A DNA stretch of 64,000 nucleotides, taken from positions 384,001-448,000 of the forward strand of contig CAVXTM010000018.1 of the NCBI GenBank assembly GCA_963764725.1, read 5' to 3'. The translations under genes and the position numbers were made by a program. The notes beneath the pieces were generated by a model that worked only from the letters and a program-made list of their open reading frames with translations, was not told the DNA's origin and made no database searches. Below, piece by piece: positions 6,337-63,256 of this stretch. Position 1 is the first letter of the stretch. Each line of letters opens with the position of its first letter. Source of the DNA: an uncultured Gammaproteobacteria bacterium. GTDB taxonomy: Bacteria; Pseudomonadota; Gammaproteobacteria; JACCXJ01.

Positions 6337-6594
6337 ATGAGCAGTGAACGTAACATCGATGAAACGGAATCGTCGGCCGTGTATCGAGGTGAGTCCCGCT
6401 TGCAGGCGCTGAGCGAGCCCTATAACGAATCTCTAGAAGAGTGGTGGCATCGCGAATGCCATCTTTCCGCCGAAAACCGGGATCCCGTACCGACGCGTAA
6501 TTCCGCAACGCCAGCGCTTAAGCGCTTGCTATCTGCACTAGTAAGGTTAGGTATCGCATACCGAAAATCAACCGTTGAGGTCCAGCTAAGATGA
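6337..6594 (+). CDS. Hypothetical small protein, doubtful, contains a REP-like palindrome
   Basis: Strong AGAGGAGA RBS and ATGA overlap with the next gene; no recognisable domain. Confidence 0.3.
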   Translation: MSSERNIDETESSAVYRGESRLQALSEPYNESLEEWWHRECHLSAENRDPVPTRNSATPALKRLLSALVRLGIAYRKSTVEVQLR

Positions 6595-45822: not shown

Positions 45823-47115
45823 ATGACTGACAGTAACCCCGTCTGGAACGACGATTGGATGACATCGCAGAAAAATTTTTGGGACGCCTGGTCACACATT
45901 CTAAGCCAATCCATGGAGCCATCGCTTAGCTCCCAAGCATTCGCTGTTCCGTGGACGGCAGCTTTGGATCTGTGGGCCAAGACCGCAGCGCCTTCCGCTC
46001 CGGCGGCTCGAGAGGATTTTTTTCAAAGTATTGTGCGGCAAGGAAGAACCTTTCTGCGACTCGGAGAGGAGCTCAGCAAACTGACACGCAACCTGGCCGA
46101 GGGCGCGCGAGCCGGAGCGAACTGGAAGGATGTGCTCGCGGCGAAGTTCAACGAACTGAAAGCGGGTTTCACTCACGGCAGTGCGTCCGACGTGACCAGC
46201 ACGCTGCGCGGTCTGCTACCTTTTTTCGAAATGCCGATGGACACCTGGGCGCGCATGTTCTCGAGCAACTCGTTGCTGCCCGGTGATTTCCTGCGGTCGA
46301 AATCCGAGGGTTTGGCCGGCGTCCCGGGCCAGATCCACGAACGCATGGATCAGTTCTTGTCGATCCCTGCGGTCGGTTATATGCGTGAATGGCAAGAGCA
46401 GACGCAGGGTGGCGTGCGTCTCACCATGGATTACCAACAGGCGCTGCAGGAATACGTGCATGCGCACGGACGGCTCGGCGTCGATGCACTCGAACGGCTG
46501 GCCGCCAAGATCATCGAACGCGCGGAGCAAGGCCGGGAAATCAATACCCTGCGAGAGGTCTATGATCTGTGGGTCGATTGTGGCGAAGAGGCGTACAACG
46601 CTCTTGTGTTCACGGAAGAATACGCGGACATTTACGCGCGGCTGGTCAACGCGCTAATGGCGTTGAAGCATCATAACCAGATCACCGTTGATGAAGTCGC
46701 AGGATCATTGAACTTGCCGACTCATCAAGAGATCACGACGCTGCAGCGGCGGCAGCAGGAGTTCCGGCGCGAGCTCGCGGGGTTCCGATCGCTGCTCGAT
46801 CCGAGCATGATGGAAGGAATGCAAGCGCCGTTAAGAGCGCAGGCAGAGGCGCTGAGCAGCCTCACGCAGTTGCGTACCCAAGGCGAAAGCATTGAGGACA
46901 TGAGAGAGAAGGTCACGGTGCTGGAACGCGACGTCGTCCGGTTGCTCAAGGAGCTGGCGTTGCTCCGCAACGGTACGGTACGCGAAGGCCGCGGCAAGCG
47001 AATCCCAGCGAAGAAGACGCCGTCCGCCGTGAGCGTGGTTGCCGCGGCCGGGCGGCCTAGGCCCACGCAGGCGGCGCGCGCCAGCGCTGCACAAAAGCGC
47101 GCCAAAGGAGACTAG
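45823..47115 (+). CDS. phaE: Class III PHA synthase subunit PhaE with C-terminal extension
   Basis: FLSIPAVGYMREWQE, LREVYDLWVDCGEEAY and LNLPT; directly upstream of phaC. Confidence 0.92.
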   Translation: MTDSNPVWNDDWMTSQKNFWDAWSHILSQSMEPSLSSQAFAVPWTAALDLWAKTAAPSAPAAREDFFQSIVRQGRTFLRLGEELSKLTRNLAEGARAGANWKDVLAAKFNELKAGFTHGSASDVTSTLRGLLPFFEMPMDTWARMFSSNSLLPGDFLRSKSEGLAGVPGQIHERMDQFLSIPAVGYMREWQEQTQGGVRLTMDYQQALQEYVHAHGRLGVDALERLAAKIIERAEQGREINTLREVYDLWVDCGEEAYNALVFTEEYADIYARLVNALMALKHHNQITVDEVAGSLNLPTHQEITTLQRRQQEFRRELAGFRSLLDPSMMEGMQAPLRAQAEALSSLTQLRTQGESIEDMREKVTVLERDVVRLLKELALLRNGTVREGRGKRIPAKKTPSAVSVVAAAGRPRPTQAARASAAQKRAKGD

Positions 47116-47118
47116 CTC

Positions 47119-48180
47119 ATGTTTCCATTTCAAATACGTCCCGATCAAGCTTTATCCGAAATCCAAGAGTTCGGGACTAAGCTCAGCCGAGGTTTACAAA
47201 CGCTGAACGAAATCGGTGATATCGACGTCGGGTGTACGGAAAAAGAGGCTATTTACACCGAAGACAAGCTCACGCTCTACCGGTTCAAGCCGCTCGTGGA
47301 GAAGCTGAACCCGGTGCCGGTGCTGATCGTATACGCACTTGTTAACCGCCCTTACATGGCGGATCTACAGAAGAACCGCTCGCTCGTGCGCGGACTTCTG
47401 GCGGGCGGCCTCGATGTCTATTTGATCGACTGGGGTTATCCCGATAGCGCCGATCGGTTTTTATCATTAAACGATTACATCAACGGTTATACCGATCGCT
47501 GTGTGGAGGTGCTCAGGAAACGGCATAGCCTGAACAAGATTAATCTCTTAGGGATCTGCCAGGGAGGAACGTTTAGCCTTTGCTATAGCGCGATGCATGC
47601 CGACAAAGTGAGGAATCTCATTACCACCGTGACACCGGTCGATTTCCACACGCCCCAGGATTTGCTCAGCCATTGGGTGCGGAAGGTAAACATCGATCTG
47701 CTGGCGGACACCATGGGTAATATCCCGGGCGAGATGCTGAACTGGACTTTTCTTTCGCTCAAACCGTTTCGGCTTTCGGGGCAAAAATACCTCGATATGG
47801 TCAACACCCTGGACGATCCGGTCCTGTGCAAGAATTTCATCCGCATGGAGAAGTGGATCTTCGATAGCCCCGACCAAGCGGGGGAAGCATTCCGGGAGTT
47901 TATCAAGCATTTTTATCAGAATAACGAGCTGATTAAAGGCGAGGTGATGATCGGTGAAAAGAACGTCGATCTCGAAAACATCACCATGCCGGTGCTCAAC
48001 ATCTTCGCCACCGACGACCACCTGGTCCCACCCGCCGCTTCGAAGGCGTTAAGGAAATACGTGGGAAGCGCGGATTATTCGGAGATCGAATTTCCCGGCG
48101 GACACATCGGGATCTACGTGAGCGGAAAAGCGCAGCAGATGATTCCCCCCTCGGTCGCGTCCTGGCTCGCCGCCCGGTAA
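47119..48180 (+). CDS. phaC: Class III PHA synthase subunit PhaC
   Basis: YALVNRPYM, lipase box GICQGG, MEKWIFDSPDQAGE, DHLVPP and GGHIG. Confidence 0.96.
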   Translation: MFPFQIRPDQALSEIQEFGTKLSRGLQTLNEIGDIDVGCTEKEAIYTEDKLTLYRFKPLVEKLNPVPVLIVYALVNRPYMADLQKNRSLVRGLLAGGLDVYLIDWGYPDSADRFLSLNDYINGYTDRCVEVLRKRHSLNKINLLGICQGGTFSLCYSAMHADKVRNLITTVTPVDFHTPQDLLSHWVRKVNIDLLADTMGNIPGEMLNWTFLSLKPFRLSGQKYLDMVNTLDDPVLCKNFIRMEKWIFDSPDQAGEAFREFIKHFYQNNELIKGEVMIGEKNVDLENITMPVLNIFATDDHLVPPAASKALRKYVGSADYSEIEFPGGHIGIYVSGKAQQMIPPSVASWLAAR

Positions 48181-48250: not shown

Positions 48251-48619
48251 TTATTTCTTTACCGCGAGCGCGGCTTTCTTTACCGGCGCGGTTCCGTTCT
48301 CCTGGGTCTTCTCGAACCAAGCCGCCACCTCATCCTTGGAATCCGTCATGATCTCGGTGGTTTTACGCAGAGCGTCAAGCATCTTCTCATTGTATTCGGT
48401 TATGAGCTTGGTTTGGCCCGCCAAGAGATCCTTATAACCCTTCGATTCGGTCATCAAGGTGACGGCCTTGATACCGGTATCGACATAGGTGTTTACCAAG
48501 CCGAGTTGCTGTTCACCTATCTTCTCAAACGTCTTGGTGCTGATCTCGCCTAGCTCCTTTAGAGAAGCAAAGCAGGTGCTGCCAAACTGAGCCCAAGGCT
48601 CCACAGTTTCAAATTGCAT
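48251..48619 (-). CDS. Phasin (PHA granule-associated protein)
   Basis: 122-aa amphipathic helical protein with a K..KDLLA.Q motif, in the PHA cluster, with TGC-rich operators upstream. Confidence 0.85.
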   Translation of the reverse strand: MQFETVEPWAQFGSTCFASLKELGEISTKTFEKIGEQQLGLVNTYVDTGIKAVTLMTESKGYKDLLAGQTKLITEYNEKMLDALRKTTEIMTDSKDEVAAWFEKTQENGTAPVKKAALAVKK

Positions 48620-48791: not shown

Positions 48792-49157
48792 CTATTTGCC
48801 CTTCACGGGTTTGCCGGCAAACGGCGCCACGGTTTTCTCCATGCCTCGTTCCGCCCACGCGCTCAGCTCATTCTTGCACTCGCTGAGTAGATCGTTGGTC
48901 CCGCGGACGATCTCGACGAACTTGGCACCGTATTCGGAGGCCAGAGCGGCTTGATGCTCCAGTAAGTCCTTCGGGTCCTTAGAGATGCTAAGCAAATTCA
49001 CTTCCTTGGCGCTTGCCTCGAGACAAGTGCTGAGGATTGCTTCCTGCTGCGCCGTCATTTTCTCCACTAGCTTGGCATTGATTGCACCAAGCTCTTTCAT
49101 GGACTCGAGGGCGCTTCTGCTCAGGGCGGCCCATTGGTCGATCATTTCTTGCTGCAT
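48792..49157 (-). CDS. Second phasin
   Basis: MQQEMIDQW...KELG...QQ...KDPKDLLEHQ aligns with the adjacent phasin; AGGAGA RBS. Confidence 0.85.
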   Translation of the reverse strand: MQQEMIDQWAALSRSALESMKELGAINAKLVEKMTAQQEAILSTCLEASAKEVNLLSISKDPKDLLEHQAALASEYGAKFVEIVRGTNDLLSECKNELSAWAERGMEKTVAPFAGKPVKGK

Positions 49158-49376
49158 ACACTTATCTCCTGGTATCAATCGTCATTGACGGTGGATAAGG
49201 CCGAAAGCCGGGGGGATTAAAAGCAGCTTACTGTGACGTGGCGTACCGGTCAACACGAGAAGACGAGGAAGCGCATGACATAGGCGAGACAGGCGCGGGA
49301 TGGTAGAATGCAAAAAACACGGCTTTTGCGGTGACAAAATGATCTTTATATCTACCGAAGAGTTAGAGGTTGGTTT

Positions 49377-51227
49377 ATGACGATAACACACGACGGAGCA
49401 AAGAGGACAAAAAACAAACGGCTTTTGCAATGGGTGGACGAGATTGCCGGCCTTTGCAATCCCGATCGCATCTATTGGTGTGATGGTTCCCAGAAGGAAT
49501 ACGATCGCTTATGCGAAGAGATGGTGCAAAAAGGAACCTTTATCCGCTTAAACCCGAAGAAGAGACCGAATAGCTTTCTCGCGCGTTCTCACCCGACCGA
49601 TGTTGCGCGCGTCGAGGACCGAACCTACATCTGCAGCGAAAAGCAGGAAAACGCCGGCCCCACGAATAACTGGATGGAGCCGCAAAAGATGCGGGGCATA
49701 CTCCGCGAATTATTCGAGGGCTGTATGCGCGGCCGCACGATGTATGTGATTCCCTTCAGCATGGGACCCATAGGTTCGCACATCTCCCATATCGGGGTTG
49801 AGATCAGCGATTCCGCCTATGTCGCGGTGAATCAGCGCATCATGACTCGCATGGGACAGACCGCTCTCGATGTGTTGGGGCCAGACGGCCACTTCGTGCC
49901 GTGCGTGCATTCGATCGGCGCACCCTTGCAGCCGCATCAGGAAGACACAGTGTGGCCGTGCAACGACACCAAATACATCACGCACTTTCCCGAAACGCGC
50001 GAAATCTGGTCATTCGGGAGCGGCTACGGCGGAAATGCCTTACTCGGTAAGAAGTGTTTCGCGCTGCGAATCGCATCGGTGATGGCGCGCGACCAAGGCT
50101 GGCTGGCCGAGCACATGCTGATCCTCGGCGTCGAATCCCCGGCCGGCGAGAAGACCTACGTGTCGGCAGCCTTTCCGAGCGCCTGTGGTAAGACAAACTT
50201 TGCGATGCTGATCCCGCCTAAGGCTTTGGATGGATGGAAAGTGACGACCATCGGGGATGATATCGCGTGGATCAAACCCGGGGCGGACGGCCGCTTTTAT
50301 GCCATTAATCCCGAAGCGGGGTATTTCGGCGTGGCGCCCGGCACGAACATGGATTCGAATCCCAATGCCATGTTAACCCTGAAAGAGAACTGCATTTACA
50401 GTAACGTCGCGCTGACCGACAACGGCGACGTTTGGTGGGAAGGGATGACGAAGGAGCCGCCCGCGCATCTCATCGATTGGAAAGGAAACGACTGGACACC
50501 CGGTAGCGGCACGCCGGCGGCGCATCCGAACGCGCGCTTCACGGCACCGGCCCATCAGTGCCCGTCGATCGATCCGAGTTGGGAGGACCCGAACGGCGTA
50601 CCCATCAGCGCCTTCATCTTCGGCGGGCGTATTAGTAAGAACTTCCCTCTGGTTCTGCAAGCATACGACTGGGAACATGGGGTCTATCTCGCGGCGACCA
50701 TGGGGTCGGAAGCGACCGCCGCCGCGGTAGGCCAGGCCGGGATGCGGCGCGATCCGATGGCGATGCTCCCGTTCTGCGGTTACAACATGGCGGATTACTG
50801 GAAGCATTGGCTGCGTATTGGCCGTCAGCGCGTCGCCACCCCGCCCTTGGTGTTCCGTGTCAACTGGTTCCGTAAAGATGACAAGGGCAAGTTCATCTGG
50901 CCGGGCTACGGTGAAAACATGCGCGCGCTGAAATGGGTGGTCGACCGCTGCCACGGGCGGGCGCGGGGCGTCGAGAGCCCCCTCGGGTGGGTGCCGCCGT
51001 TCGAGGAATTGGTCTTGGACGGTATCGAGTTTTCAAAGGATCGGTTCTACGAGATCATGAACATCGACCGGGAACGGGCGCGGCAGGAAGCGAACGATCA
51101 AGAGGAGCTGTTCACGCGTTTCGGAGATCATCTCCCGCGCGAAATGGAAATCGAGAGAGAGTTACTGCTATCGCGCCTCTATCACTCACCTACCGTTTGG
51201 GATTTGAGCTTCGCTAGCGCTACATAA
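49377..51227 (+). CDS. pckG: Phosphoenolpyruvate carboxykinase (GTP)
   Basis: [35 protein letters not shown] and HPNARF. Confidence 0.96.
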
Positions 51228-51283
51228 TAGGACGGACATCAGCAAGGCGCCCCAGAGGCCGCGCCTTTGGCTTCGGCGGGGCT

Positions 51284-52231
51284 TTACGCGGTTAACCGCC
51301 GGCCGTTGACCGCGATGTCGGTTCCAGTGATATACCCGCTCGTGTCCGCCGCGAGAAAGTCGACCACGGCGGCGATCTCATCAGGCTCACCCCATCGCCC
51401 CTTGGCTAGCTTCGCCTTAATCGCTTTGCGGATTTCATCCGGGATTTCCGCCACCATGCCGGTCGCGCCATGTCCGGGTGATACGGCATTAACGGTGATC
51501 CCCTGATCCCCTAGCTCCCGAGCCAGAGATTTGGTAAAACCCAGCATACCCGCCTTGGCGGCCGCAATGTCGGTTTGCCCAAATTGCCCTGGAGGCCCGT
51601 TAACCGAGGAGATATTGATTATCCGGCCGAAGTGCCGTTCCTCCATCGCCGCGATCACAGTACGCGTAACATTGAATACGCTGTCGAGATAGGTATCCAG
51701 AACTGTCTGCCAGTTCTCGTGTTTACTGTCGTTGCGGGTGATGCCGACGCAGTTGACCAAGATATCGACGTGACCGTAGCGACCTTCGATCCAGCTCGCC
51801 ATACTGGCGCAATCATCGCATCGCGCGACATCACACGCGACGATACCAAGTTCATAGCCGCCCCTACGTCTCGCCGCTTGCCATTGGCGCGCGGCAGCCG
51901 ATTCGTGACGAGGATACGTGGCGATGACTAAGAAACCCGCATCCGCGAGCCGCAGACAAATCGCCGTTCCGATGTTTCCAGTTCCGCCGGTGACTAAAGC
52001 TACTCGCCCGCCGTGCTGCAACCGGTGGTACGGGCGCAACTGCGTCCAGGCGTGGCGCAGCCCCGCGGCAGCCGCGGAAACGCTCCGATTCCACTCGTCC
52101 CGCTGACGTGTTGCTAAAGCATCGAGGGATTGCCCGAACGCCGTGGCGACCTGGACGCTCGAGGTGAACGCCCTGGTCCAGGCACGGCTCCATACTTCCA
52201 GAACTTTGAGTGACATCGTGTCGAGAAACAT
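51284..52231 (-). CDS. PhaB-like SDR lacking the catalytic Tyr and Asn, fused to an N-terminal phasin-like segment
   Basis: TGGTGNIG and INISSVNG are intact, but YxxxK reads DIAAAK and TNL reads TYL; about 75-aa N-terminal extension; GGAGG RBS. Confidence 0.85.
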   Translation of the reverse strand: MFLDTMSLKVLEVWSRAWTRAFTSSVQVATAFGQSLDALATRQRDEWNRSVSAAAAGLRHAWTQLRPYHRLQHGGRVALVTGGTGNIGTAICLRLADAGFLVIATYPRHESAAARQWQAARRRGGYELGIVACDVARCDDCASMASWIEGRYGHVDILVNCVGITRNDSKHENWQTVLDTYLDSVFNVTRTVIAAMEERHFGRIINISSVNGPPGQFGQTDIAAAKAGMLGFTKSLARELGDQGITVNAVSPGHGATGMVAEIPDEIRKAIKAKLAKGRWGEPDEIAAVVDFLAADTSGYITGTDIAVNGRRLTA

Positions 52232-52292
52232 AGTGGTAACGCCTCCCGATTTTTCGTTAGTTTTCTGCGTCGATGGTTGAGCTTGAGGTTGA

Positions 52293-52826
52293 TTATTCTT
52301 GCTTCTTACCCGCCTCGCCTTCGCTCTCAGTGGGATTAGTCATGCCGGCGGCCCGGAACAAGCTGTCTTGCATTTTCTTGAAGACGTCCAGGTTTCGTTG
52401 GGTGATCTCTGTCAAGGCCGTGAGGGGATTGTTTTTAACAGCGTCGCTAATCTGCGTGTGGAATAGCTTCTGCTGTTCGGTAAACATCCCTAAGCTGCGT
52501 TCGATAAAATTGCCCGCTAAGCCTTGGACCGCGTCGCCGTAGAAACGGATAATTCGGAGGAGAGCATGGGTGGTGAACAACGGTTCCCCGTGGCCCTCTT
52601 CTTCGGTGATGATCTGCAGCAAGATGCTCCGGGTAATGTCTTCGCCGGTTTTTTGGTCGGTGACATAGAATTCAATTCCGGCCAACACTAGGGTCCGCAC
52701 ATCCGCGAGGGTGATGTACTTACTCTCGAAGGTGTCGTACAGGCGGCGATTCGGGTACTTTTTGATGACACGCTTGTCACCCGTCGCGGCACCCGTATCG
52801 CCGATGGAATTTGGATGCGTCGCCAT
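52293..52826 (-). CDS. phaR: PHA synthesis repressor
   Basis: IKKYPNRRLYDT...GEDITRSILLQII; start overlaps the phaB stop (TGATG). Confidence 0.95.
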   Translation of the reverse strand: MATHPNSIGDTGAATGDKRVIKKYPNRRLYDTFESKYITLADVRTLVLAGIEFYVTDQKTGEDITRSILLQIITEEEGHGEPLFTTHALLRIIRFYGDAVQGLAGNFIERSLGMFTEQQKLFHTQISDAVKNNPLTALTEITQRNLDVFKKMQDSLFRAAGMTNPTESEGEAGKKQE

Positions 52827-53575
52827 CACATCATGTGCTGCCCGCCGTTGATGGAGAGATCGGCGCCGGTAATAAAACCGGCGCGGTCGGACACCAGAAA
52901 ATCGACTAAGTAAGCCACTTCTTCGGAAGTTCCTAAACGTCCCACGGGGATCTGGGCGATTATTTGATTGCGAATATTTTCCGGGACGGCCATCACCATC
53001 TCGGTGGCGATATATCCAGGTGAGACCGTGTTCACCGTGATCGCCTTGCGCGCGACTTCTTGCGCCAAGGACATGGTGAAACCGTGCATGCCGGCCTTGG
53101 ACGCCGTGTAGTTGCTTTGCCCGATCTGACCTTTCTGGCCGTTGATGGACGAGATATTGATGATCCGCCCGTGGCCACGGTCGATCATCCCCGAAATGAC
53201 GTGCCGCGTGACATTGAAGACACTGTCGAGGTTGGTCCGCAGGACCGTGTCCCATTGCTCTTTGCTCATCTTGCGTAGCGTCACATCCAGCGTGATGCCC
53301 GCGTTATTGACGAGGATATCGATGGGGCCCGGGTCTTTTTCGATCTCGCCGATCATCCAACCGCAGGCGTCGAAGTCCGTCACATCGACACGGTAGGCCT
53401 TAAAATCGTAGCCTTCGGCGCGCATCTCCGTCAACCACTTTTGGGCCTTTTGTTCATTGCGGTAATTGGTCGCGACCTTGGCGCCGGACACCGCAAGTTG
53501 TTTGCATATGGCCGCGCCGATCCCGCTCGTTCCCCCCGTGATCAGCGCTACGCGTCCGCTGAGATCTTTCGTCAT
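52826..53575 (-). CDS. phaB: Acetoacetyl-CoA reductase
   Basis: [28 protein letters not shown] and NYTASK. Confidence 0.95.
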
Positions 53576-53588
53576 TGGTCTTTCTCTT

Positions 53589-54770
53589 TCAACGCTCCAC
53601 CGCTAGAGCAACGCCTTGGCCACCGCCGATGCATAAGGTCGCAAGGCCCTTGCGCACATCGCGTCGGATCATCTCGTACACCAAAGAAACCAAGACACGC
53701 GCCCCGGAGGCACCGATGGGGTGGCCGAGCGCAATCGCGCCGCCGTTGACGTTCACTTTGGCGACATCCCAACCGATATCCCGGTTCACCGAAAGCGCCT
53801 GGGCCGCAAAGGCCTCGTTCGCCTCGATAAGATCGAGATCCTGAACCTTCCATCCGGCTTTCCGCAAGCACCGTTGCGTCGCGGGCGTCGGACCTGTCCC
53901 CATTATGGCAGGATCGACGCCGGCCGTGGCATAAGCAACAATTCGCGCCAGCGGTGACAGACCCAGGGCCTTGGCCTTGCTTTCGGTGGTGATAATCACG
54001 CCGGCCGCGCCGTCATTGATTCCGGAAGCATTGCCTGCCGTGACCGAGCCCTCCCGGTCGAAGGCGGGTTTCAGTTTGCCCAGGGCTTCGGCAGTCGTGC
54101 CGTGACGGGGAAACTCATCGGTATCGAAGATGATCGGGTTGCCTTTCTTTTGCGGAATTTCGACGGGGATGATTTCCTTCGCGAAACGCCCCGCCTTCTG
54201 AGCGGCCTCCGCCTTTTGCTGCGAGAGCGCCGCGAACGCGTCCTGTTCCTCGCGCGAGATACCGTACTTCTTAACGATGTTTTCGGCGGTCATGCCCATG
54301 TGATAATCATTAAAAACATCCCATAAGCCGTCGTTGATCATCGTATCGACTAACGTCCATTCGCCCATCTTCTTGCCGGTGCGTGAGGCGGGGAGCACGT
54401 GCGGCGTTAGACTCATATTTTCTTGACCCCCGGCCACCACTAGCTCGGCATCACCGGCGCGAATCGATTGCGCGGCCAAAGCCACCGCTTTGAGCCCGCT
54501 GCCGCATACCTTGTTGATGGTCATACACGGCACCGAGTGCGGCAGACCCGCGCCCAGTGCCGCCTGCCGCGCCGGGTTCATGCCGACGCCCGCGGTCAGG
54601 ACCTGGCCTAAGATCACTTCCTCAATGTCCTCGGGCTTAATCCCGGTCTTGGACAAGAGCGCAGAGATGACCTTCGCGCCCAAGGTTGCCGCCGGAATAG
54701 TCGCGAGCGTTCCCCCAAAGGTTCCTATAGCCGTCCGACCGGCGGCCACGATAACTACGTTTTCAGCCAT
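53589..54770 (-). CDS. phaA: Acetyl-CoA acetyltransferase (biosynthetic thiolase)
   Basis: [22 protein letters not shown] and LCIGGGQG. Confidence 0.95.
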
Positions 54771-54925
54771 TTAGTTCTCCGCACTGACACCGCGTTCGCG
54801 GTACTGACCCAACGATATTACTAGAACGCTTCAAGCAGCGGCGAGGCTCGAACGAGGCGCATGCGTACAGCTAATTTACACCTTACCTTAGAGCCTGCTG
54901 TCTATCCGGTAAACACGAGGATCGC

Positions 54926-54938
54926 TGCGATGCAATAA
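54926..54938. promoter_or_regulatory. Candidate PhaR operator upstream of phaA
   Basis: TGCGATGCAATAA. Confidence 0.6.
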
Positions 54939-55006
54939 GAAGCGTAACAAAGTACGCTCGCAGAATCTAGAGGGTGGGCCACTTGCAACACGCGGACGCG
55001 TATCGA

Positions 55007-56425
55007 TTATAGATTGATCGTGCGGTTATCCACTGCGAGCGCGGCTTCGTGCATGGCTTCCGCGAGCGTCGGATGGGCGTGGATCGCACGCGCCAGATCT
55101 TCGGTGCTGGCACCGAATTCCATCGCGATCACCGCCTCACTGATTAGTTCCGAGGCGTTCGGGCCGAAGATATGCACCCCAAGCAAAGCATCGCTTTCGG
55201 CATCGCCCAGGATTTTGACGAGTCCCGCAGTCTCGCCCATGGCACGAGCCCGTCCGCTCGCTAGGAACGGAAATACTCCGCGCCGAAACGGTGTGCCATT
55301 CAACTTTAACGACTGCTCTGTTTGACCCACCCAGGCTACCTCCGGCCAGGTATAAATGATCGATGGGATACAAGCGTAATTCACCTCGGTAGCGTGACCC
55401 GCTATGGTTTCCACCACCGCCATACCCTCCTCGGAGGCTTTATGGGCCAGCATCGGGCCGCCAATGACATCGCCGATGGCAAACACGTCGCTCAGGGTTG
55501 TACGGCACCCATCATCGACCTCGACGAAGCCACGCTCATCGAGATTAATCCCGCATTCTGCGAGACCGAGCCCGTCGGTATTCGGGCGCCGTCCGACCGC
55601 GACGATCAGTCTGTCCACGGCCAGATCGTGTTGCACTTGGTCCCTCTGGTACGCAACGCGAAGGTCAGTCCCGTTCACGGTCACACCGGTCACGGCACAG
55701 CCTAACCGGATCGCCAAATCTTGCCGCGCCAGTTCTTTCGCGGTGGCCTGCGCGATCTCGAAATCCGCACCCGGCAGAAACTCGCTCAATGCCTCCAATA
55801 TAATGACCTCTGAGCCAAGACGCCGCCACACGCTTCCAAGCTCAAGCCCGATCGCGCCGGCGCCGATGATGCCCAAGCGTTTCGGGACTTCCGAAAATGC
55901 TAGCGCCGCCGTCGAATCGCAAATCAACCCGTTATCGATCTCGATGCCGGGCAGCGCGACGGGTACCGAACCGGTAGCGATGATGATATGCGAGGCCGTA
56001 ATCATGGACGCTTCGGCGCGCGTGCGACCGGTCACTGCCACGCGCATGTCGCCCATCAGGCGCGCCCGTCCCGCAAGCCACGTCACGTTATTTTTCTTAA
56101 AGAGCCCGGCGATGCCCTGGGTCAAGGTGCGTACGACTTTATCCTTGCGGAGCATCATCGACGGGAGGTCGAGGCTGAGCCCGCTCACGGCGATCCCGTG
56201 ATCCTTGGTGTGGCGGGCAATCGTCTCGTAGAGGTGGGAGGAATCCAAAAGCGCCTTGGAAGGAATACAGCCGACATTCAGGCACACACCGCCCAAGGCC
56301 GGTTTACCGGCAGCATCGACCCAAGAGTCGACGCAAGCGGTTGTAAAACCGAGTTGGGCGGCGCGGATAGCCGCGACATAACCGCCGGGCCCCCCACCTA
56401 CCACCACGACGTCGTAGCGGTCCAC
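55007..56425 (-). CDS. lpdA: Dihydrolipoyl dehydrogenase
   Basis: GGGPGG, GGVCLNVGCIPSK and HAHPTLAE. Confidence 0.96.
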   Translation of the reverse strand: MDRYDVVVVGGGPGGYVAAIRAAQLGFTTACVDSWVDAAGKPALGGVCLNVGCIPSKALLDSSHLYETIARHTKDHGIAVSGLSLDLPSMMLRKDKVVRTLTQGIAGLFKKNNVTWLAGRARLMGDMRVAVTGRTRAEASMITASHIIIATGSVPVALPGIEIDNGLICDSTAALAFSEVPKRLGIIGAGAIGLELGSVWRRLGSEVIILEALSEFLPGADFEIAQATAKELARQDLAIRLGCAVTGVTVNGTDLRVAYQRDQVQHDLAVDRLIVAVGRRPNTDGLGLAECGINLDERGFVEVDDGCRTTLSDVFAIGDVIGGPMLAHKASEEGMAVVETIAGHATEVNYACIPSIIYTWPEVAWVGQTEQSLKLNGTPFRRGVFPFLASGRARAMGETAGLVKILGDAESDALLGVHIFGPNASELISEAVIAMEFGASTEDLARAIHAHPTLAEAMHEAALAVDNRTINL

Positions 56426-56428
56426 GTC

Positions 56429-57652
56429 CTAGACCTCGATCAGGATGCGCGCCGGATCTTCGATGTGCTGTTTGATCGTGACCAGAAACTGCACGGCCTC
56501 GCGTCCGTCGATGATACGGTGATCGTAGGACAATGCGACGTACATCATCGGCCGAATCACCACCTGCCCCTCTTCCGCCACGGGCCGGTCTTGGATCCGG
56601 TGCATGCCGAGGATCGCGCTCTGGGGCGGGTTAATAATGGGCGTCGATAAGAGGGAACCGAACACACCTCCGTTGGTGATGGTGAAGGTGCCGCCGGTAA
56701 GCTCGTCGATGCCGAGCTTCGCATCCCGCGCCTTGTCGCCGAATTCCTTCACCGCGATTTCTACTTGCGCGAAGCCCAGACGGTCAACGTCGCGAAGCAC
56801 GGGGACCACGAGTCCACGCTCCGAGCTGACCGCGATCCCGAGGTCGTAGTAGTCATGGTACACGACATCGGAACCGTCGATGGAAGCATTGACAATCGGA
56901 AACTTTTTCAACGCCGACACCGCGGCCTTGCAGAAAAAGCCCATGAACCCCAGGCGCGCACCATGGCGCGACTCGAACGCCGAGCGATAACGCTCCCGCA
57001 GCACCATGACCGGCTGCATGTTGATTTCATTGAACGTGGTCAGGATCGCGTTCTCGCGTTGCGCTGCCAAGAGGCGCTCGGCAACGCGCAAACGCAAGCG
57101 ACTCATGGCGACGCGCTTCGTGGGACGCTGACCCGTGTCGGGGTCCGCCGATGCATCTTTCTGCTGCGCCGGCACTGTAACCAGACCGGTATCTTTGGCC
57201 TCAATATAAGTCAGCACGTCTTGCTTGGTGATCCGGCCGCTTTTCCCGCGCGCCGGAATGGTTTTAGGATCGAGGGCGTGCTCCGTGACCAACCTGCGGA
57301 CGGCCGGGCTGAGCGACGTCACGTCCTCGGAAGGCGCCTCCTCGCTCACGCGCCTAGGCACGGCAGCCGGTTTGGGCGTGCTGAGCTCGTTATCCGCGGG
57401 CTGCTCGACCTGGGGAGAGGTATCGATGACCGCCAACACTTCTTGACTCAATGCCGTCTCACCTGCTTTTTTGTGGATCTCCTTGAGCATTCCCGCTTCC
57501 GGGGCGGTGATCTCCAATGTCACCTTGTCCGTCTCAAGATCGGTTAGGTGCTCGCCCCGGCCGATCCGATCGCCCGGTTGCTTATGCCACTCGATCACAC
57601 GCGCATCGGCAATCGATTCGGCCAGTACTGGAACCTTGACCTCTAGGAGCAT
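56429..57652 (-). CDS. sucB: 2-oxoglutarate dehydrogenase E2
   Basis: Lipoyl motif [13 protein letters not shown] and DHRIIDG. Confidence 0.96.
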
Positions 57653-57664
57653 GGGGTTGATGCT

Positions 57665-60478
57665 TTACGCGGTCTTCTGCTGCGCCGCGACACCCTGATT
57701 CAACTTCAAGGCTTCGCTGACCAAGGCCTGCTGCTGCTCGATGTGTTTCGAGCTATAACCCACCGCCGGCGACGCGGAGTACGGGCGCGCCACGAGCCTC
57801 AGTTGCTGCGGTTCGTGCAAGCGGCCGAAGAGATGCAGGCGTGACAGCAGATAGAACCAGGCTCCTTGGTTGCGCGGCTCTTCCTGCACCCAAATGATTT
57901 CGAGCGCGTTCGGATAACGTGCCAGCACGGCGTCCATTCCTTGGGTTGGAAACGGATACAATTGCTCTAGTCGGACGATCGCAATGTCTTTGATTTTGTT
58001 CGCGCGCCGGGCTTCCAAGAGATCAAAATAAATCTTTCCGCCACAGATCAGCACACGATCTACCGCCCGCCCATCGATGGGATCGATCTCGTCGATAACA
58101 ACCTGAAAGCCACCTTCGGTGATATCCGACAGGGTCGAAGTCGAGAGCTTATGCCTGAGCAGGCTTTTTGGGCTCATGACGACCAAGGGCTTCTTGTAGG
58201 GGCGGCGCGCCTGCCTTCTTAACATATGAAACATCTGCGCGGGCGTGCTCGGAACGCATACCTGTATATTTTCCTCGGCGCAGAGCTGTAAGTACCGTTC
58301 GAGGCGTGCCGAGGAATGCTCGGGGCCCTGTCCATCATATCCATGGGGCAACAACATGACTAGGCCGCTGTAACGGCTCCATTTGGACTCGCAGGAAGTG
58401 ATAAATTGATCGATGACGACTTGAGCCCCATTGGCGAAATCGCCGAATTGCGCCTCCCAGATCACCAAGGCATCGGGTTCCGAACTGCTGTACCCGTATT
58501 CGAAGCCCAAAACCGCCTCTTCGGACAAGATCGAATTGATCACCATGAATCGCGCCTGATCCCCTTTGACATGGTGCAGGGGGACGTAGCCTTCACCGCT
58601 GCTTTGATCGTGCAAGACCGCATGCCGGTGAAAAAACGTCCCGCGCTCGCTGTCCTGCCCCGCGAGCCGGATGGGATAACCTTCATCGACTAAACTGGCA
58701 TAAGCGAGGGTTTCCGCGTATCCCCAGTCGATCGGCGCATGCCCCTGCCCCATCTGGCGGCGTTGCTCGATGATGCGCTCTACACTGCGGTGCAACTGGA
58801 TATCCTTGGGGATGCTCGTGAAGCGTTGGCTCAACGCCTGAACGCGTTCCAGCGCAAGCGCGGTTTCACAAGGCATATCCCAATGGGTGCCGTGGTATGC
58901 TGTGAAACTGACTCTAAGTTCGTTCCTGATGTCGTACACGACCGGTCCCGCAACGATCTGATCGCCTTCAAGCGAATCGATGTAAGACCGGGCCATCGAC
59001 TCCGCTTCGTTTTCTTGGATGAGACCTTCCTGTTGCAGCTTTTCCGAATAGATCCTGACGACGCTAGGATGCTGCCGGATCTTTTGGTACATGATGGGCT
59101 GAGTCGCCATGGGCTCGTCGGCTTCGCTATGGCCATGCCTGCGGTAGCAGACCAAATCGATGACAATGTCTTTGTTGAATTCCATTCGGTAATCAAGCGC
59201 CAGCCGCGCGAGCATTACGACGGCTTCGGGATCATCGCCGTTAACATGTAAGATCGGCGCTTGGACCATCTTCGCCACGTCGGTGCAATACAAGGTTGAG
59301 CGCGCATCCAGCGGATCGCTGGTAGTGAAGCCGATTTGGTTATTGATGATGATGTGAATGGTGCCGCCCGTGGCATATCCGCGCGTCTGCGACAGGTTGA
59401 GCGTCTCCATCACCACCCCTTGCCCGGCAAACGCCGCATCCCCGTGCATCAGGATAGGCAATACCGTGTCCCGGTTTCTATCGCGGCGCCGGTCTTGGCG
59501 TGCTCGTACCGATCCTTGAACGACCGGGTTGATGATTTCCAAATGCGAGGGATTAAACGCGAGCGTCAGGTGAACCGGCCCCCCCGGAGTGGCGATATCG
59601 GAGGAGTAGCCCAGATGGTATTTAACATCACCCGAACCGGCGGCGTTCCCGCCCTTGCCTTCGAACTCCTCGAAGAGTTCCGCCGGATGTTTGCCGACAA
59701 TGTTGACCAGCACGTTTATTCGGCCACGATGCGCCATCCCGATGACGACTTCCTTGATCCCGCCCTCGCCGCCGCTCCGTACCAATTCGTCGAGTAAGGG
59801 GATCGCACTTTCGCCGCCCTCCAGGGAGAAGCGTTTCTGTCCTACGTATTTTCGGTGCAGATATTCTTCCAGCGTGGTGGCAGCCACCAGCCGTTCCAGG
59901 ATCCGCCGCTTTTTTGGCGGGTCGAAACCGGGCGTGGCACAGTCCAGTTCCAAGCGTTGCTGAAGCCAGCGTTTTTGATTGGTGGCGTTAATATGCATGT
60001 ATTCGGCGCCGATCGTGCGGCAGTACGTTGTCCGGACCCGACGTAGGATTTCGCCTAAGGCGGCATACTCGGCGCCAAAAAACGATCCCGTGCTATAGCT
60101 AACGCCGAAGTCGCGTTCGCTCAGCCCATGAAAGGCGGGATCGAGCTCGGCGACGATCGGACGCTCGATTTGGCGCAAGGGATCGAGATCGGCTTGCCGG
60201 TGGCCTCGAAACCGGTAAGCGTTAATGAGTTGTAAGACCGCGATTTGTTTTTGGATCCGGGCTTCGAGACCGGCGTCGGATAAGGATTCGGTCCGCTCCG
60301 GCGCCAGCGCAGACCCATCGCCTCCCGGCGCTGCTTGCTCGGCGCCAGGCGCTAGGTCTTCGAATACCGACCGCCAATGCGCATCGACCGTTTGCGGACT
60401 GCGTACGAATTGCTCATACAACGAGTCAATAAACTCGGCGTTTCCGCTATGTAATGCCGTAGCTCTGCGCAGCTTCAT
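57665..60478 (-). CDS. sucA: 2-oxoglutarate dehydrogenase E1
   Basis: KRFSLEG, GMAHRGR, HGDAAFAGQG, WEAQFGDF and GPEHSS. Confidence 0.97.
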   Translation of the reverse strand: MKLRRATALHSGNAEFIDSLYEQFVRSPQTVDAHWRSVFEDLAPGAEQAAPGGDGSALAPERTESLSDAGLEARIQKQIAVLQLINAYRFRGHRQADLDPLRQIERPIVAELDPAFHGLSERDFGVSYSTGSFFGAEYAALGEILRRVRTTYCRTIGAEYMHINATNQKRWLQQRLELDCATPGFDPPKKRRILERLVAATTLEEYLHRKYVGQKRFSLEGGESAIPLLDELVRSGGEGGIKEVVIGMAHRGRINVLVNIVGKHPAELFEEFEGKGGNAAGSGDVKYHLGYSSDIATPGGPVHLTLAFNPSHLEIINPVVQGSVRARQDRRRDRNRDTVLPILMHGDAAFAGQGVVMETLNLSQTRGYATGGTIHIIINNQIGFTTSDPLDARSTLYCTDVAKMVQAPILHVNGDDPEAVVMLARLALDYRMEFNKDIVIDLVCYRRHGHSEADEPMATQPIMYQKIRQHPSVVRIYSEKLQQEGLIQENEAESMARSYIDSLEGDQIVAGPVVYDIRNELRVSFTAYHGTHWDMPCETALALERVQALSQRFTSIPKDIQLHRSVERIIEQRRQMGQGHAPIDWGYAETLAYASLVDEGYPIRLAGQDSERGTFFHRHAVLHDQSSGEGYVPLHHVKGDQARFMVINSILSEEAVLGFEYGYSSSEPDALVIWEAQFGDFANGAQVVIDQFITSCESKWSRYSGLVMLLPHGYDGQGPEHSSARLERYLQLCAEENIQVCVPSTPAQMFHMLRRQARRPYKKPLVVMSPKSLLRHKLSTSTLSDITEGGFQVVIDEIDPIDGRAVDRVLICGGKIYFDLLEARRANKIKDIAIVRLEQLYPFPTQGMDAVLARYPNALEIIWVQEEPRNQGAWFYLLSRLHLFGRLHEPQQLRLVARPYSASPAVGYSSKHIEQQQALVSEALKLNQGVAAQQKTA

Positions 60479-60619
60479 GCCTTCTCAAGATTAAACGCAA
60501 TCCGTAACGAGTCGCGGCGGTTCCCTCATGTACGGGAATCGCCGTGCGCCGACGCGACACGATGATGACGGTAACGAAGCGGTCATGATATCGGGTCTCT
60601 TAATCACGGCAGCCTAATG

Positions 60620-60632
60620 TGCGCCGCAATAA
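60620..60632. promoter_or_regulatory. Candidate PhaR operator in the sucA/gltA divergent promoter region
   Basis: TGCGCCGCAATAA, with a weaker TGCGCCGCG at 60716. Confidence 0.5.
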
Positions 60633-60832
60633 TACCCAATAGCTAAGGATGGGCCAAGAGTTTTAGCCTATGCCATGATCCGGTCCGGCCGCGGCGGCGC
60701 AAAGATGCTACTTGCTGCGCCGCGAAAAATAACGTTATGCTTACCCCTCCCAGAGGGAGGTACTGAGGTATAAGGCTTATGGTGAAACCCGGAAACGCCG
60801 CGAATACACGACCGCCGCCCAAGGATAATTCG

Positions 60833-62134
60833 ATGACATCCGACACGGTAACGATAACGGACAATACTACCGGCAAAACGATCGAATGTCCGGTTTATCG
60901 CGGCACTTACGGGCCTGCCGTCATCGATACCAAGCGCCTTTACAGCGAGCTTGGGATGTTTACCTTGGACCCCGGGTTCGTCACGACCGCAAGCTGCCGT
61001 AGCGCGATTACCTACCTTGACGGCGACAAGGGGATCTTGTTGTACCGCGGCTACCCGATTGAGCAATTGGCCGAGCACAGCCACTTCCTAGAAGTAGCGT
61101 ACCTACTGATTTATGGCGAACTGCCGACGGCTCGGCAAATGGCGGAATTCGATTCGTCCGTTAAAAAGCACAGCATGGTGCATGAGCACCTGATCAAGTT
61201 CTACGGCGGTTACCGCTACGACGCCCATCCGATGTCCATCATGGTCGGCGTGATCGGCGCGATGGCTTCTTATTACCACGATTCGATTGACATTTACGAC
61301 CAGGGTGACCGCGATGCGACCGCTCGCCGCATCCTGGCGAAGATGCCGAACATCGCTTCCAAGTGTTACAAGTATGGCGTCGGCCAGCCTTTTGTGTATC
61401 CCAACAACTCCCTGGGGTACATAGAAAACTTCATGCACATGATGTTCGCGCAGCCCTCGGAACCTCTTATCACCAATCCGGTCGCGGTATACGCTTTGGA
61501 TCTACTCTTCATCCTACACGCCGACCATGAGCAAAACGCCAGCACCTCCGCGGTTCGGCTTGCGGGGAGCACCGAGAGCAACCCCTATACCTGCATCGCG
61601 GCCGGCATCGCGACCTTGTGGGGGCGTGCACATGGCGGTGCAAACGAGGCGGTCGTGCATATGCTCGAAGAGATCCAGGATATTAAGAACGTACGAAAGT
61701 ACGTCGATCGGGCCAAGGACAAGGACGGATCGTATCGATTGATGGGATTCGGGCATCGCGTCTATAAGAATTACGACCCGCGCGCGGCGATTATCCGCAA
61801 GGCGTGTCACGCCGTCCTCGACGCAATGGGCGCGGGCGCGCATCGGCCTATGCTCGAGATCGCCGTGGAGCTGGAGCGCATCGCGCTTGAAGATGACTAT
61901 TTTATCGAGAGGAAGCTCTACCCGAACGTGGACTTTTACTCCGGGATCATTCTCAAGGCGCTCGAAATACCGACGCGTATGTTCACGGTGTTGTTCGCCA
62001 TAGCGCGGACCGCCGGATGGCTAGCTCAATGGATGGAGATGATCATGGATGCGGATTTCCGCATCGGACGGCCCCGTCAGATCTATATCGGTTCTGAAAC
62101 CAGGGACTATGTGCCGGTCGCAAAAAGAAACTAG
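60833..62134 (+). CDS. gltA: Citrate synthase (type II)
   Basis: [26 protein letters not shown] and YPNVDFYSG. Confidence 0.97.
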
Positions 62135-62145
62135 TCAGAATATTC

Positions 62146-62175
62146 TCGCCTGCGGGGTATGTACCCCGCAGGCGA
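62146..62175. terminator. Hairpin downstream of gltA
   Basis: TCGCCTGCGGGGTA-TG-TACCCCGCAGGCGA. Confidence 0.65.
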
Positions 62176-62272
62176 CCAAAAAGGGAGAGTTACACTACTC
62201 CCCTTTGGAAACCCCATTGCTAAGGTGCCCGCCGTAAATGGCGGGGTATTCCTGAATTAAGCGGGAGAACCA

Positions 62273-63256
62273 ATGACGCAGCCTTTGCAGATTACGGTCA
62301 CTGGGGCCGCCGGCCAGATAGGTTACGCATTGCTGTTTCGCATAGCCGCCGGAGAGATGCTGGGACGGGACCAGCGGGTATGCTTACGGCTACTGGACAT
62401 CACGCCCGCCTTGAAGGTGTTGGAAGGGGTGGTGATGGAGCTGATGGACTGCGCGTTTCCGCTCCTCGAAGACGTCGTCATTACCGATGATCCCAAGGTC
62501 GCGTTTCAAGCCACCTCCTATGCCTTGCTCGTGGGCGCCAGACCCCGTGGTCCCGGCATGGAGCGCAGCGATCTGCTCGCCGCGAACGGTGGGATATTTC
62601 AGATCCAAGGGCGAGCCCTCAATGAGCAAGCGCGGCGAGAGGTCAAGGTTCTGGTGGTCGGTAATCCAGCGAACACCAACGCGTTAACGGCAATGCAGAG
62701 CGCTCCGGACATCGATGCAAAGAACTTCTCCGCGCTGACGCGCTTGGATCACAATCGAGCCATCGCTCAGTTAGCGCAAAAGGCCGGCTGCAAGCTCACG
62801 GATATCAAGAAACTGGCCATTTGGGGGAATCACTCGACCACCCAGTATCCCGACATCAGTCACACCTTGATTCGCGGCCGGCCGGCTAAGGACTCGATAG
62901 AGCAGCGCTGGTTAACGGATGAATTCATTCCCCGGGTCGCGAAACGGGGAGCGGAGATTATCGCCGCACGCGGCGCCTCGAGCGCGGCATCAGCCGCGAA
63001 TGCGGCCATCGAGCACATGCGCGATTGGGTGATGGGAACCCCGGCGAATGATTGGACCAGCATGGCAGTTGCGAGTGACGGGAGCTATGGCATTGCGCCC
63101 GGTTTGATCTATTCGTTCCCGGTGACCACGCAGGACGGCGGCTACAGCATTGTCCAGGGTCTCAGCATCGATGAGTTTAGCCGCGCGCGCATGGAGATCA
63201 CCCGCAAGGAACTGGAAGAAGAACGGGACGCGGTCGAGAAGCTTTTGGCCGGTTGA
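62273..63256 (+). CDS. mdh: Malate dehydrogenase
   Basis: [26 protein letters not shown] and WGNHS. Confidence 0.96.

Follow-up and report, generated by a model that had tools for sequence, protein, structure and literature searches.

The pha locus and gene X

The window analyzed here, a stretch of 64,000 nucleotides from an uncultured gammaproteobacterium, contains a polyhydroxyalkanoate (PHA) gene cluster in which a minus-strand row of phaA, phaB, and phaR is followed by a fourth gene, a phaB paralog with an N-terminal extension (51284..52231, minus strand). We refer to the protein encoded by this open reading frame (ORF) as X. An earlier, sequence-only reading of the locus had described X as a phasin fused to a catalytically dead acetoacetyl-CoA reductase. 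Judged by its relatives, X is best read as a noncatalytic descendant of a family of long acetoacetyl-CoA reductase paralogs rather than a one-off fusion of a phasin with a dead enzyme, and it is probably a nonenzymatic part of the storage-granule machinery.

The ORF is genuine, with 315 codons and a stop, and a ribosome-binding site (RBS), GGGAGG (52242..52247, minus strand), can be read from the sequence 10 nt 5′ of its ATG. The intact ORF and RBS, as well as the position of X directly after phaA-phaB-phaR, had been reported in the sequence-only reading, and both are borne out. The three preceding genes, all on the minus strand, are the thiolase gene phaA (53589..54770); phaB (52826..53575), which encodes a canonical short acetoacetyl-CoA reductase with an intact Asn-Ser-Tyr-Lys (N-S-Y-K) tetrad; and phaR (52293..52826), which lies 61 nt upstream of X and encodes a protein of 177 amino acids starting at the Met at 52826. 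The identity of PhaR follows from its Pfam domains, PHB_acc_N and PHB_acc, and from TIGR01848 (142.6 bits). An extension of the phaR frame to 53255 in the ORF listing is an artifact of the first-start rule, as the translation that matches Pfam and TIGR01848 begins at 52826. The phaB gene ends at this same position, such that its stop codon and the phaR start codon share one base (window 52824-52828), an overlap that suggests translational coupling of the two genes.

Convergent with X and within the pha cluster is a gene for a GTP-dependent phosphoenolpyruvate (PEP) carboxykinase (pckG; 49377..51227, plus strand). Beyond it lie two genes for Phasin_2 phasins, both on the minus strand (48792..49178, Pfam E value 5.7e-15, and 48251..48619, Pfam E value 3.5e-17), and phaE-phaC for a class III PHA synthase (45823..48180, plus strand). 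A scan of positions 50900-55100 for promoters and terminators gave signal no higher than that of shuffled sequences.

X retains a reductase fold and lacks the catalytic tyrosine

Residues 76-315 of X (51287..52006, minus strand) constitute a short-chain dehydrogenase/reductase (SDR) domain with a Rossmann fold of the acetoacetyl-CoA-reductase type. Pfam assigns residues 76-310 to the SDR domain (adh_short over residues 76-265, E value 1.2e-45) and gives no match within residues 1-75 at E ≤ 1, and a BLASTP comparison with the neighboring PhaB finds 124 of 241 residues identical (51%, E value 3e-74). Against the PhaB family model TIGR01829, X scores 281.7 bits, below the cut-off of 302.1, compared with 371.8 bits for PhaB. 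PhaB structures are also among the matches of X in a phmmer search of the PDB, with E values of 1e-55 to 1e-61 over residues 68-311, and the best PDB matches of the X model in Foldseek are acetoacetyl-CoA reductases at template modeling (TM) scores of 0.77-0.81 and 43-47% identity. That model, predicted by AlphaFold2 with 82 sequences, has a mean predicted local distance difference test (pLDDT) score of 77 and values above 90 in the SDR core.

The catalytic tetrad of X reads Y-S-I-K. Isoleucine replaces the catalytic tyrosine at residue 222 (codon ATT, 51566..51568, minus strand; QTDIAAAK compared with QSNYTASK in PhaB), tyrosine replaces the asparagine at residue 181 (51689..51691, minus strand; TYLDS compared with TNLDS in PhaB), and Ser209 and Lys226 are retained. 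The sequence-only reading had these four positions right for the window genome. It had also counted the Rossmann motif TGGTGNIG (residues 81-88, 51968..51991, minus strand) as kept, which proves mistaken: the second glycine is an asparagine and varies within the genus, and X fails the TGxxxGxG dinucleotide-binding motif at this position. A further altered segment, residues 160-173 (51713..51754, minus strand), comprises the sequence NCVG and a shortened loop after strand 4. Compared with PhaB and with the active long forms, that is, the relatives with a homologous extension that keep the catalytic machinery, the loop lacks 4 residues; the distance from the NCVG motif to the Asn position is 18 residues in X and 22 in PhaB, in agreement with the 4-residue deletion noted before. 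The change from NNAG in PhaB to NCVG in X is likewise seen, but the cysteine is normal in the active long forms, which have NCAG, and only the substitution of Ala by Val is derived.

Among the 92 Tyr-keeping relatives described below, 117 SDR columns are at least 90% conserved, and we compared these columns with the sequences from the genus of the window genome and from its sister genus. Of these, 100 are preserved in the genus and 67 in the sister genus. The 17 columns altered in the genus lie in the glycine motif, in NCAG with the shortened loop, in GQKGQ (now GPPGQ), in N-Y (D-V/I), in PGY (PGH), in IPxGRL (LAKGRW), and in the C-terminal GGL (RRL), elements that we take, from what is known of SDR proteins, to be cofactor, substrate-lid, and active-site parts. 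Retained in each dead clade are LDSVFNVTR and AAKAGMxGFTKSLAREL..GITVN, which presumably correspond to helices E and F, the main dimer interface of SDR proteins. The pattern of what is lost and what is kept fits a protein that still folds and oligomerizes and for which substrate binding is dispensable. Dips in AlphaFold2 confidence at the active-site loops of X were considered as a sign of degeneration and dropped; they carry no weight because the model of the active long form from genome G029, introduced below, dips similarly.

The N-terminal arm is homologous to half of a phasin

Ahead of the SDR domain, the AlphaFold2 model of X has two helices (residues 3-31 and 36-63, pLDDT 53-70) and then coil up to residue 76, in which residues 63-71 fall below a pLDDT of 50; residues 64-75 (52007..52042, minus strand) form the linker. 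The N-terminal 75 residues are strongly amphipathic. Their mean hydrophobic moment is 0.41, compared with 0.235 ± 0.047 for shuffled sequences, none of 500 of which reaches the observed value, and the phasin gives 0.35 versus 0.18 in the same test.

The sequence-only reading had aligned this extension without gaps to the phasin encoded at 48251..48619. Such an alignment exists from Met6 onward, with seven identities, and its W, S, and Q recur in the second phasin. As a pairwise likeness, however, it is no better than chance, and BLASTP of the extension against both window phasins returns no match at E ≤ 100. At the profile level the similarity is significant. A profile of 15 extensions compared with one of 18 local phasins gives a probability of 20.6% and an E value of 0.0011, already in the register of the earlier alignment, with a score that 0 of 400 column shuffles reach. 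With 114 extensions, the probability against the same 18 phasins is 96.3%, with an E value of 1.8e-9 and a score of 51 over 58 columns. The 86 Tyr-keeping extensions taken separately give 96.4% and an E value of 1.1e-9, and hhalign with the full-length alignment A4 against A3 gives 91.8% and an E value of 7.2e-7. In controls with the 114-extension profile, reversed profiles score 9-11, and none of 100 column shuffles reaches 50 (maximum 17).

Throughout the profile comparisons the register is constant, with X residues 4-61 (52049..52222, minus strand) set against phasin residues 1-56. The alignment stops at phasin residue ~56 of 122, and the C-terminal half of the phasin scores 12.6 against the 114-extension profile. 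Cluster phasins from genomes G029 and G028, which are absent from the phasin alignment, match singly at 91% and 94% in this same register. Arm and phasin share a W-x9-S pattern with a conserved Gln further on, and the active long forms additionally carry S-x5-E and Q-Q/H at phasin spacing. These comparisons establish homology between the arm and the N-terminal half of the phasins encoded in the cluster itself; the phasin-like region of the arm corresponds to the first ~56 residues of these Phasin_2 proteins. The sequence-only reading had proposed an HHpred comparison of the extension with Phasin_2; the profile comparisons made here find homology with the cluster-type phasins. The claim of a phasin fusion holds insofar as the extension is homologous, but what is fused is half a phasin only.

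Other searches with the arm or for Phasin_2 were negative within their scope. A six-frame Phasin_2 search of the genome finds four phasin loci and no match at X (E ≤ 0.001), and Phasin_2 is not among the 25 Pfam families most often matched by 82 long forms. The extension profile has eight matches at E ≤ 0.001 among 1.84 billion representatives, with no phasin among them. Matches of this profile to P0008 (3944 amino acids, 28 stretches), whose Pfam matches are to coiled-coil families only, and to P0013 (5680 amino acids, six stretches) were judged compositional, both proteins being repetitive coiled-coil giants. The ESM Atlas holds no usable match to residues 1-75, and the phmmer search found no solved PDB chain that covers residues 1-67 of X. 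A complex prediction for the extension with the phasin from 48251..48619 scored 0.01, a value without bearing on binding either way.

Orthologs of X and the wider long-form family

Our ortholog search covered 41 related genomes. Full-length matches to X are present in all eight other genomes of the genus (81-91% identity), in all five of the sister genus (41-43%), and in one genome of another family, G029 (52%). All 14 genomes of the two genera have an intact ORF, and none of them has the catalytic tyrosine, the position being Ile or Val in the genus (9/9) and Leu, Phe, or Val in the sister genus (5/5); among the database clusters, Cys and Ile also occur at this position, and no Tyr is conserved nearby. 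The loss of the asparagine, by comparison, is confined within the genus to two of nine genomes, which have Tyr, whereas the other seven keep Asn, so the earlier claim that this residue is lost applies to the window genome and not to the genus as a whole. The second glycine of the glycine motif is N in two, D in five, and G in two of the nine genus genomes and Ile in the sister genus. All nine genus sequences have the short loop after strand 4; in the sister genus the tetrad asparagine is Gly, the glycine motif reads TGARGxLG, and the C-terminal tail is longer. Several clusters of the dead clade have Ser changed to P, T, or V and Lys changed to R.

The 9/9 and 5/5 counts, the rate estimates given below, and alignments A1-A3 rest partly on unpublished genomes (G001, G002, G005, G007, and G008 of the genus; G009, G012, and G014 of the sister genus). 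The published subset (G000, which is the window genome, G003, G004, and G006; G011 and G013), together with public protein clusters, shows the same states.

The G029 protein keeps the tyrosine. It has the full N-S-Y-K tetrad, NCAG, and the full loop, and its N-terminal extension is homologous to that of X. Because an active protein carries a homologous extension, the extension, on this comparison, existed before catalysis was lost. The active long form of G029 lies between phaR and a convergent pckG, with phasins and phaE beyond, in the same order as in the window, and in G028 the order is sucA-sucB-phaA-phaB-phaR-long form-phasin. Position after phaR is found in the window and at loci L013, L018, and L020.

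To describe the wider family, we searched a protein collection with the full-length alignment and took the best 120 of 6696 matches. A total of 121 relatives were tabulated, with P0008 and P0010-P0013 left out as fragments or spurious. The tyrosine is kept in 92 of these 121 (83 with N-S-Y-K and 9 with H-S-Y-K) and lost in 29, and at least 86 Tyr-keeping protein clusters among them have an extension of at least 60 amino acids. A named isolate, Methylohalomonas lacus, contributes one of them (WP_310521976.1), which is annotated as acetoacetyl-CoA reductase only. The description of X as a phasin element on a dead enzyme is right about the missing catalytic Tyr, but the fusion is widespread in forms with an intact tyrosine; among homologs with the same fusion, the Tyr loss is conserved across two genera and most of the tabulated relatives do not share it.

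A tree of the SDR domain (FastTree, LG+gamma, rooted on short PhaBs, without P0029, a single run) recovers the long forms as monophyletic (support 0.94). Nested among the active forms is a single clade (0.99) of 27 Tyr-less sequences, which comprises the genus, the sister genus, and P0014; the long branches of the dead forms could attract one another, and taxonomy agrees with the tree for both genera. We conclude from the tree and the G029 protein that the arm predates the loss of catalysis.

P0046, with an N-S-C-L tetrad (Tyr to Cys and Lys to Leu), falls outside the dead clade beside the intact P0037 (0.95) and is known from short contigs only; it may represent an independent loss of catalysis. 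The nine H-S-Y-K long forms (P0041, P0044, P0045, P0049-P0051, P0053, P0054, and P0104) make up one clade and are otherwise intact. Members nested in the long-form clade (P0084, P0091, P0111, P0122; L020:5190-6041) have just 16-21 residues before the SDR domain, which suggests a secondary loss of the arm in some long-form lineages.

We also surveyed the class in an even sample of 301 genomes. Matches that cover the extension without stops occur in nine genomes from six families, and all nine also have a short PhaB match. Five of these loci were examined, and four are intact (G223, G071, G107, and G293). The fifth, L055 (G154:C76, from an unpublished genome), is a dead long form from a different family with a degenerate glycine motif, Asn changed to Asp, and a shortened Tyr-Lys stretch; it is sister to the dead clade (support 0.84). 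The window genome has no second long form at E ≤ 1e-85.

X is under purifying selection beside an intact phaB

We estimated the ratio of nonsynonymous to synonymous substitution rates (dN/dS) within each genus by the Nei-Gojobori method, with bootstrap intervals. For X as a whole, dN/dS is 0.32 in the genus and 0.45 in the sister genus. The SDR domain has values of 0.26 (0.20-0.35) and 0.35 (0.25-0.50), with none of 1000 bootstraps reaching 1, and the arm has values of 0.61 (0.38-1.08) and 0.89 (0.46-2.07). The corresponding ratios are 0.13 and 0.25 for PhaB and 0.13 and 0.10 for PhaR. Between the genera, X has a dN of 0.61, a dS of 2.1, and 41% identity, compared with a dN of 0.125, a dS of 1.6, and 80% identity for PhaB. 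Root-to-tip lengths are 1.07-1.94 for the dead forms and 0.89 for the active forms.

On the dN/dS values, X is relaxed relative to PhaB, and its SDR body is clearly non-neutral. A dN/dS below 1, which the sequence-only reading had named as a check, is thus found for the SDR domain in both genera, with bootstrap intervals that stay below 1. The arm keeps its frame, its start, and W14 and R16 across saturated synonymous divergence, and the RBS is conserved as well. By these measures the X gene is retained under purifying selection beside the intact short phaB. The Tyr loss, shared by both genera with synonymous sites saturated between them, is old by the same comparison.

Comparison of X with known systems

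Canonical PhaB, represented by structures from Ralstonia eutropha (PDB 3VZP and 4N5M) and Burkholderia (4K6C, 4K6F, and 3GK3) and encoded in the same pha cluster, has the SDR fold and subfamily in common with X. X differs from it in having no catalytic Tyr, an altered Asn, a degenerate glycine motif, a shorter loop, and an altered C-terminal tail and in adding a 75-residue N-terminal arm. The active long-form PhaB paralogs, such as that of M. lacus, resemble X more closely in their homologous arm, their NCAG-type SDR subclade, and their position after phaR, but they keep N-S-Y-K, TGGxGGIG, and the full loop, all of which are absent from the X clade. The cluster phasins, members of the Phasin_2 family (PF09361), share with the X arm the helical amphipathic region. 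Unlike them, X contains half of a phasin only, has no counterpart of helix 3, is fused to an SDR domain, and is not matched by the Pfam family.

The only solved relative of the local phasins, PhaP of Aeromonas hydrophila (PDB 5IP0), matches them weakly (E value 0.0097). As described in the accessible part of its report (PMC5180188), PhaP has a short helix 1, a long helix 2 (residues 17-60), a linker, and helix 3; it is a tetramer in solution, and monomer-sized species appear on addition of a hydrophobic phase, from which the authors propose that PhaP disassembles on hydrophobic surfaces such as granules. Transferred to X, this helix layout would make the arm the equivalent of helices 1 and 2 without helix 3.

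The closest precedent for a scaffold role of X would be mammalian mitochondrial HSD17B8, which, according to the portion of the preprint available to us (bioRxiv 10.64898/2026.07.13.738135), acts as a scaffold for the catalytic CBR4 in a heterotetrameric ketoacyl reductase. HSD17B8 has no phasin-like arm, and a hetero-oligomer of X with PhaB is proposed by analogy. The more distant sequence matches of X include PDB entry 4CQL. Engineered phasin fusions that immobilize enzymes on PHA beads, as outlined in the accessible sections of a phasin review (PMC5658603), are man-made and use whole phasins; like X, they combine a phasin element at one end with a globular enzyme. Those sections of the review mention engineered fusions only and no natural fusion of a phasin with PhaB, and in the open papers that we searched, with subscription journals and supplementary files outside the search, we found no description of a phasin-PhaB fusion of this kind.

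A proposed structural role for X at the granule

We put at about even the chance that X is a conserved pseudo-reductase tethered to granules by its half-phasin arm, where it would act structurally or as a scaffold. The N-terminus of the family would be an amphipathic two-helix arm that descended from the N-terminal half of a phasin encoded in the cluster and is joined by a flexible linker to the SDR body. Such an arm may place X on the surface of the PHA granule, either directly on the polymer or among phasins. The SDR body would then serve as a structural unit, most likely as an oligomerization partner that holds active PhaB, or itself alone, at the granule.

A more specific version of this proposal, which we offer as tentative, combines several of these elements. 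X would be a granule anchor for the polyhydroxybutyrate (PHB) pathway, forming mixed tetramers with short PhaB via the helix E/F interface, while the half-phasin arms dock the complex near the class III synthase; catalysis by X would have become dispensable and been lost. This version would place one loss in the common ancestor of the two genera, possibly with further losses in P0046 and, less surely, in G154, and it would give the long forms a structural, noncatalytic role even before catalysis was lost. Taken by itself, the formation of mixed tetramers between X and active short PhaB, for which HSD17B8-CBR4 is the precedent, seems to us rather doubtful.

Several results weigh against tethering by a half-phasin arm. 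Pfam detects Phasin_2 in 0 of 15 extensions at E ≤ 10, and X itself has no match at E ≤ 1. When compared with six distant Phasin_2 proteins, the arm reaches a score of 16.7 and a probability of 1.4%, whereas the local phasins match the same six at 96%; because the distant phasins match the local phasins and not the arm, the link from the arm to Pfam Phasin_2 is transitive, via cluster-type phasins. As the arm comes without the second phasin half, phasin-like behavior would not be guaranteed for it. In addition, the nonsynonymous rate of X between the genera is approximately five times that of PhaB, and constraint on the arm within genera is weak, with dN/dS intervals that include 1.

The fivefold rate, together with the longer root-to-tip paths of the dead forms, an arm indistinguishable from neutrality in the sister genus, and the presence of an intact short PhaB, is what would be expected if X were a redundant paralog in decay, with no function of its own and merely uninterrupted so far. 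Intact ORFs in all 14 genomes at a dS above 1.6, the SDR ratios of 0.26-0.35 that no bootstrap brings to 1, the retention of 100 of 117 conserved columns, and the conserved start codon, RBS, and W14/R16 all speak against decay, which we consider decidedly improbable. Continued enzymatic activity, via other residues or in a different reaction, would account for selection on a domain that keeps its fold and, in the window genome, its Ser and Lys. With no Tyr conserved nearby, a catalytic position occupied by I/V in the genus sequences and by L/F/V in those of the sister genus, Ser and Lys lost in some clade members, and a degenerate cofactor motif, this explanation strikes us as barely plausible.

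The sequence-only reading had suggested that X may report NADP(H) or acyl-CoA status. On this view, the dead SDR domain would still bind cofactor or thioester and act as a sensor at the granule, in the manner of NmrA-like proteins. The Rossmann core is kept and modeled with high confidence, the window genome retains Ser209, Lys226, and most of the glycine motif, and the gene directly follows that of a regulator, phaR. What weakens the idea is that the dinucleotide motif TGxxxGxG varies freely at its central glycine, which is N, D, or G in the genus and Ile in the sister genus, unlike in a conserved dinucleotide pocket. The strand-4 loop is shortened and PGY has become PGH, both elements that we assume, from what is known of SDR proteins and PhaB, to contact substrate or nicotinamide; other dead-clade members have changes at Ser and Lys; and X has no match to the Pfam family NmrA (PF05368) at E ≤ 1, with weak matches in 15 of 82 long forms (best E value 0.018). 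We regard a sensor as quite unlikely. An arm that serves as a protein-protein module, for example for PhaR, PhaC/PhaE, or phasins, and not as a granule anchor, would make X a regulator of the synthase or the repressor. Of the phasin hairpin, the arm has just the first two helices, and the absence of helix 3 would leave its hydrophobic face free to pair with another protein; X also adjoins phaR. No sequence feature indicates a particular partner, however, and we think this alternative unlikely.

Textbook accounts have the PHA synthase fed by soluble PhaA and PhaB. If X is a granule-tethered pseudo-reductase as we propose, a natural family of phasin-armed PhaB proteins would imply that the reductase step is anchored at the granule in some bacteria, an arrangement that engineers create artificially. 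A tethered protein that is kept after the loss of catalysis would demonstrate a structural role of its body and add a pseudoenzyme to the granule proteome.

Host and genomic neighborhood

The host looks like a methane oxidizer of upland soil cluster gamma (USC-gamma), as the nearest named protein is from 'Chromatiales bacterium USCg_Taylor' and the genome contains pmoA-family genes. The window genome has four matches to the ammonia monooxygenase (AMO)/pmoA family (among them C18:234387-235094, C16:488849-489547, and C3:34673-35361), and two of the four are full length. The USC-gamma group is uncultured, and the handling of storage polymer may matter for its survival on trace methane.

A PEP carboxykinase gene occupies the same place inside the pha cluster in the sister genus and in another family (L013:5254-7101; L018:4359-6212). 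Upstream of phaA, window positions 55010-63253 carry lpd-sucB-sucA on the minus strand and then gltA and mdh on the plus strand, and sucA-sucB precede phaA in G028 too; tricarboxylic acid cycle and PHA genes form a conserved neighborhood. At the other end of the window, positions 6591-8561 (plus strand) encode a 657-residue protein with a choice-of-anchor Q domain and RTX-type calcium-binding repeats.

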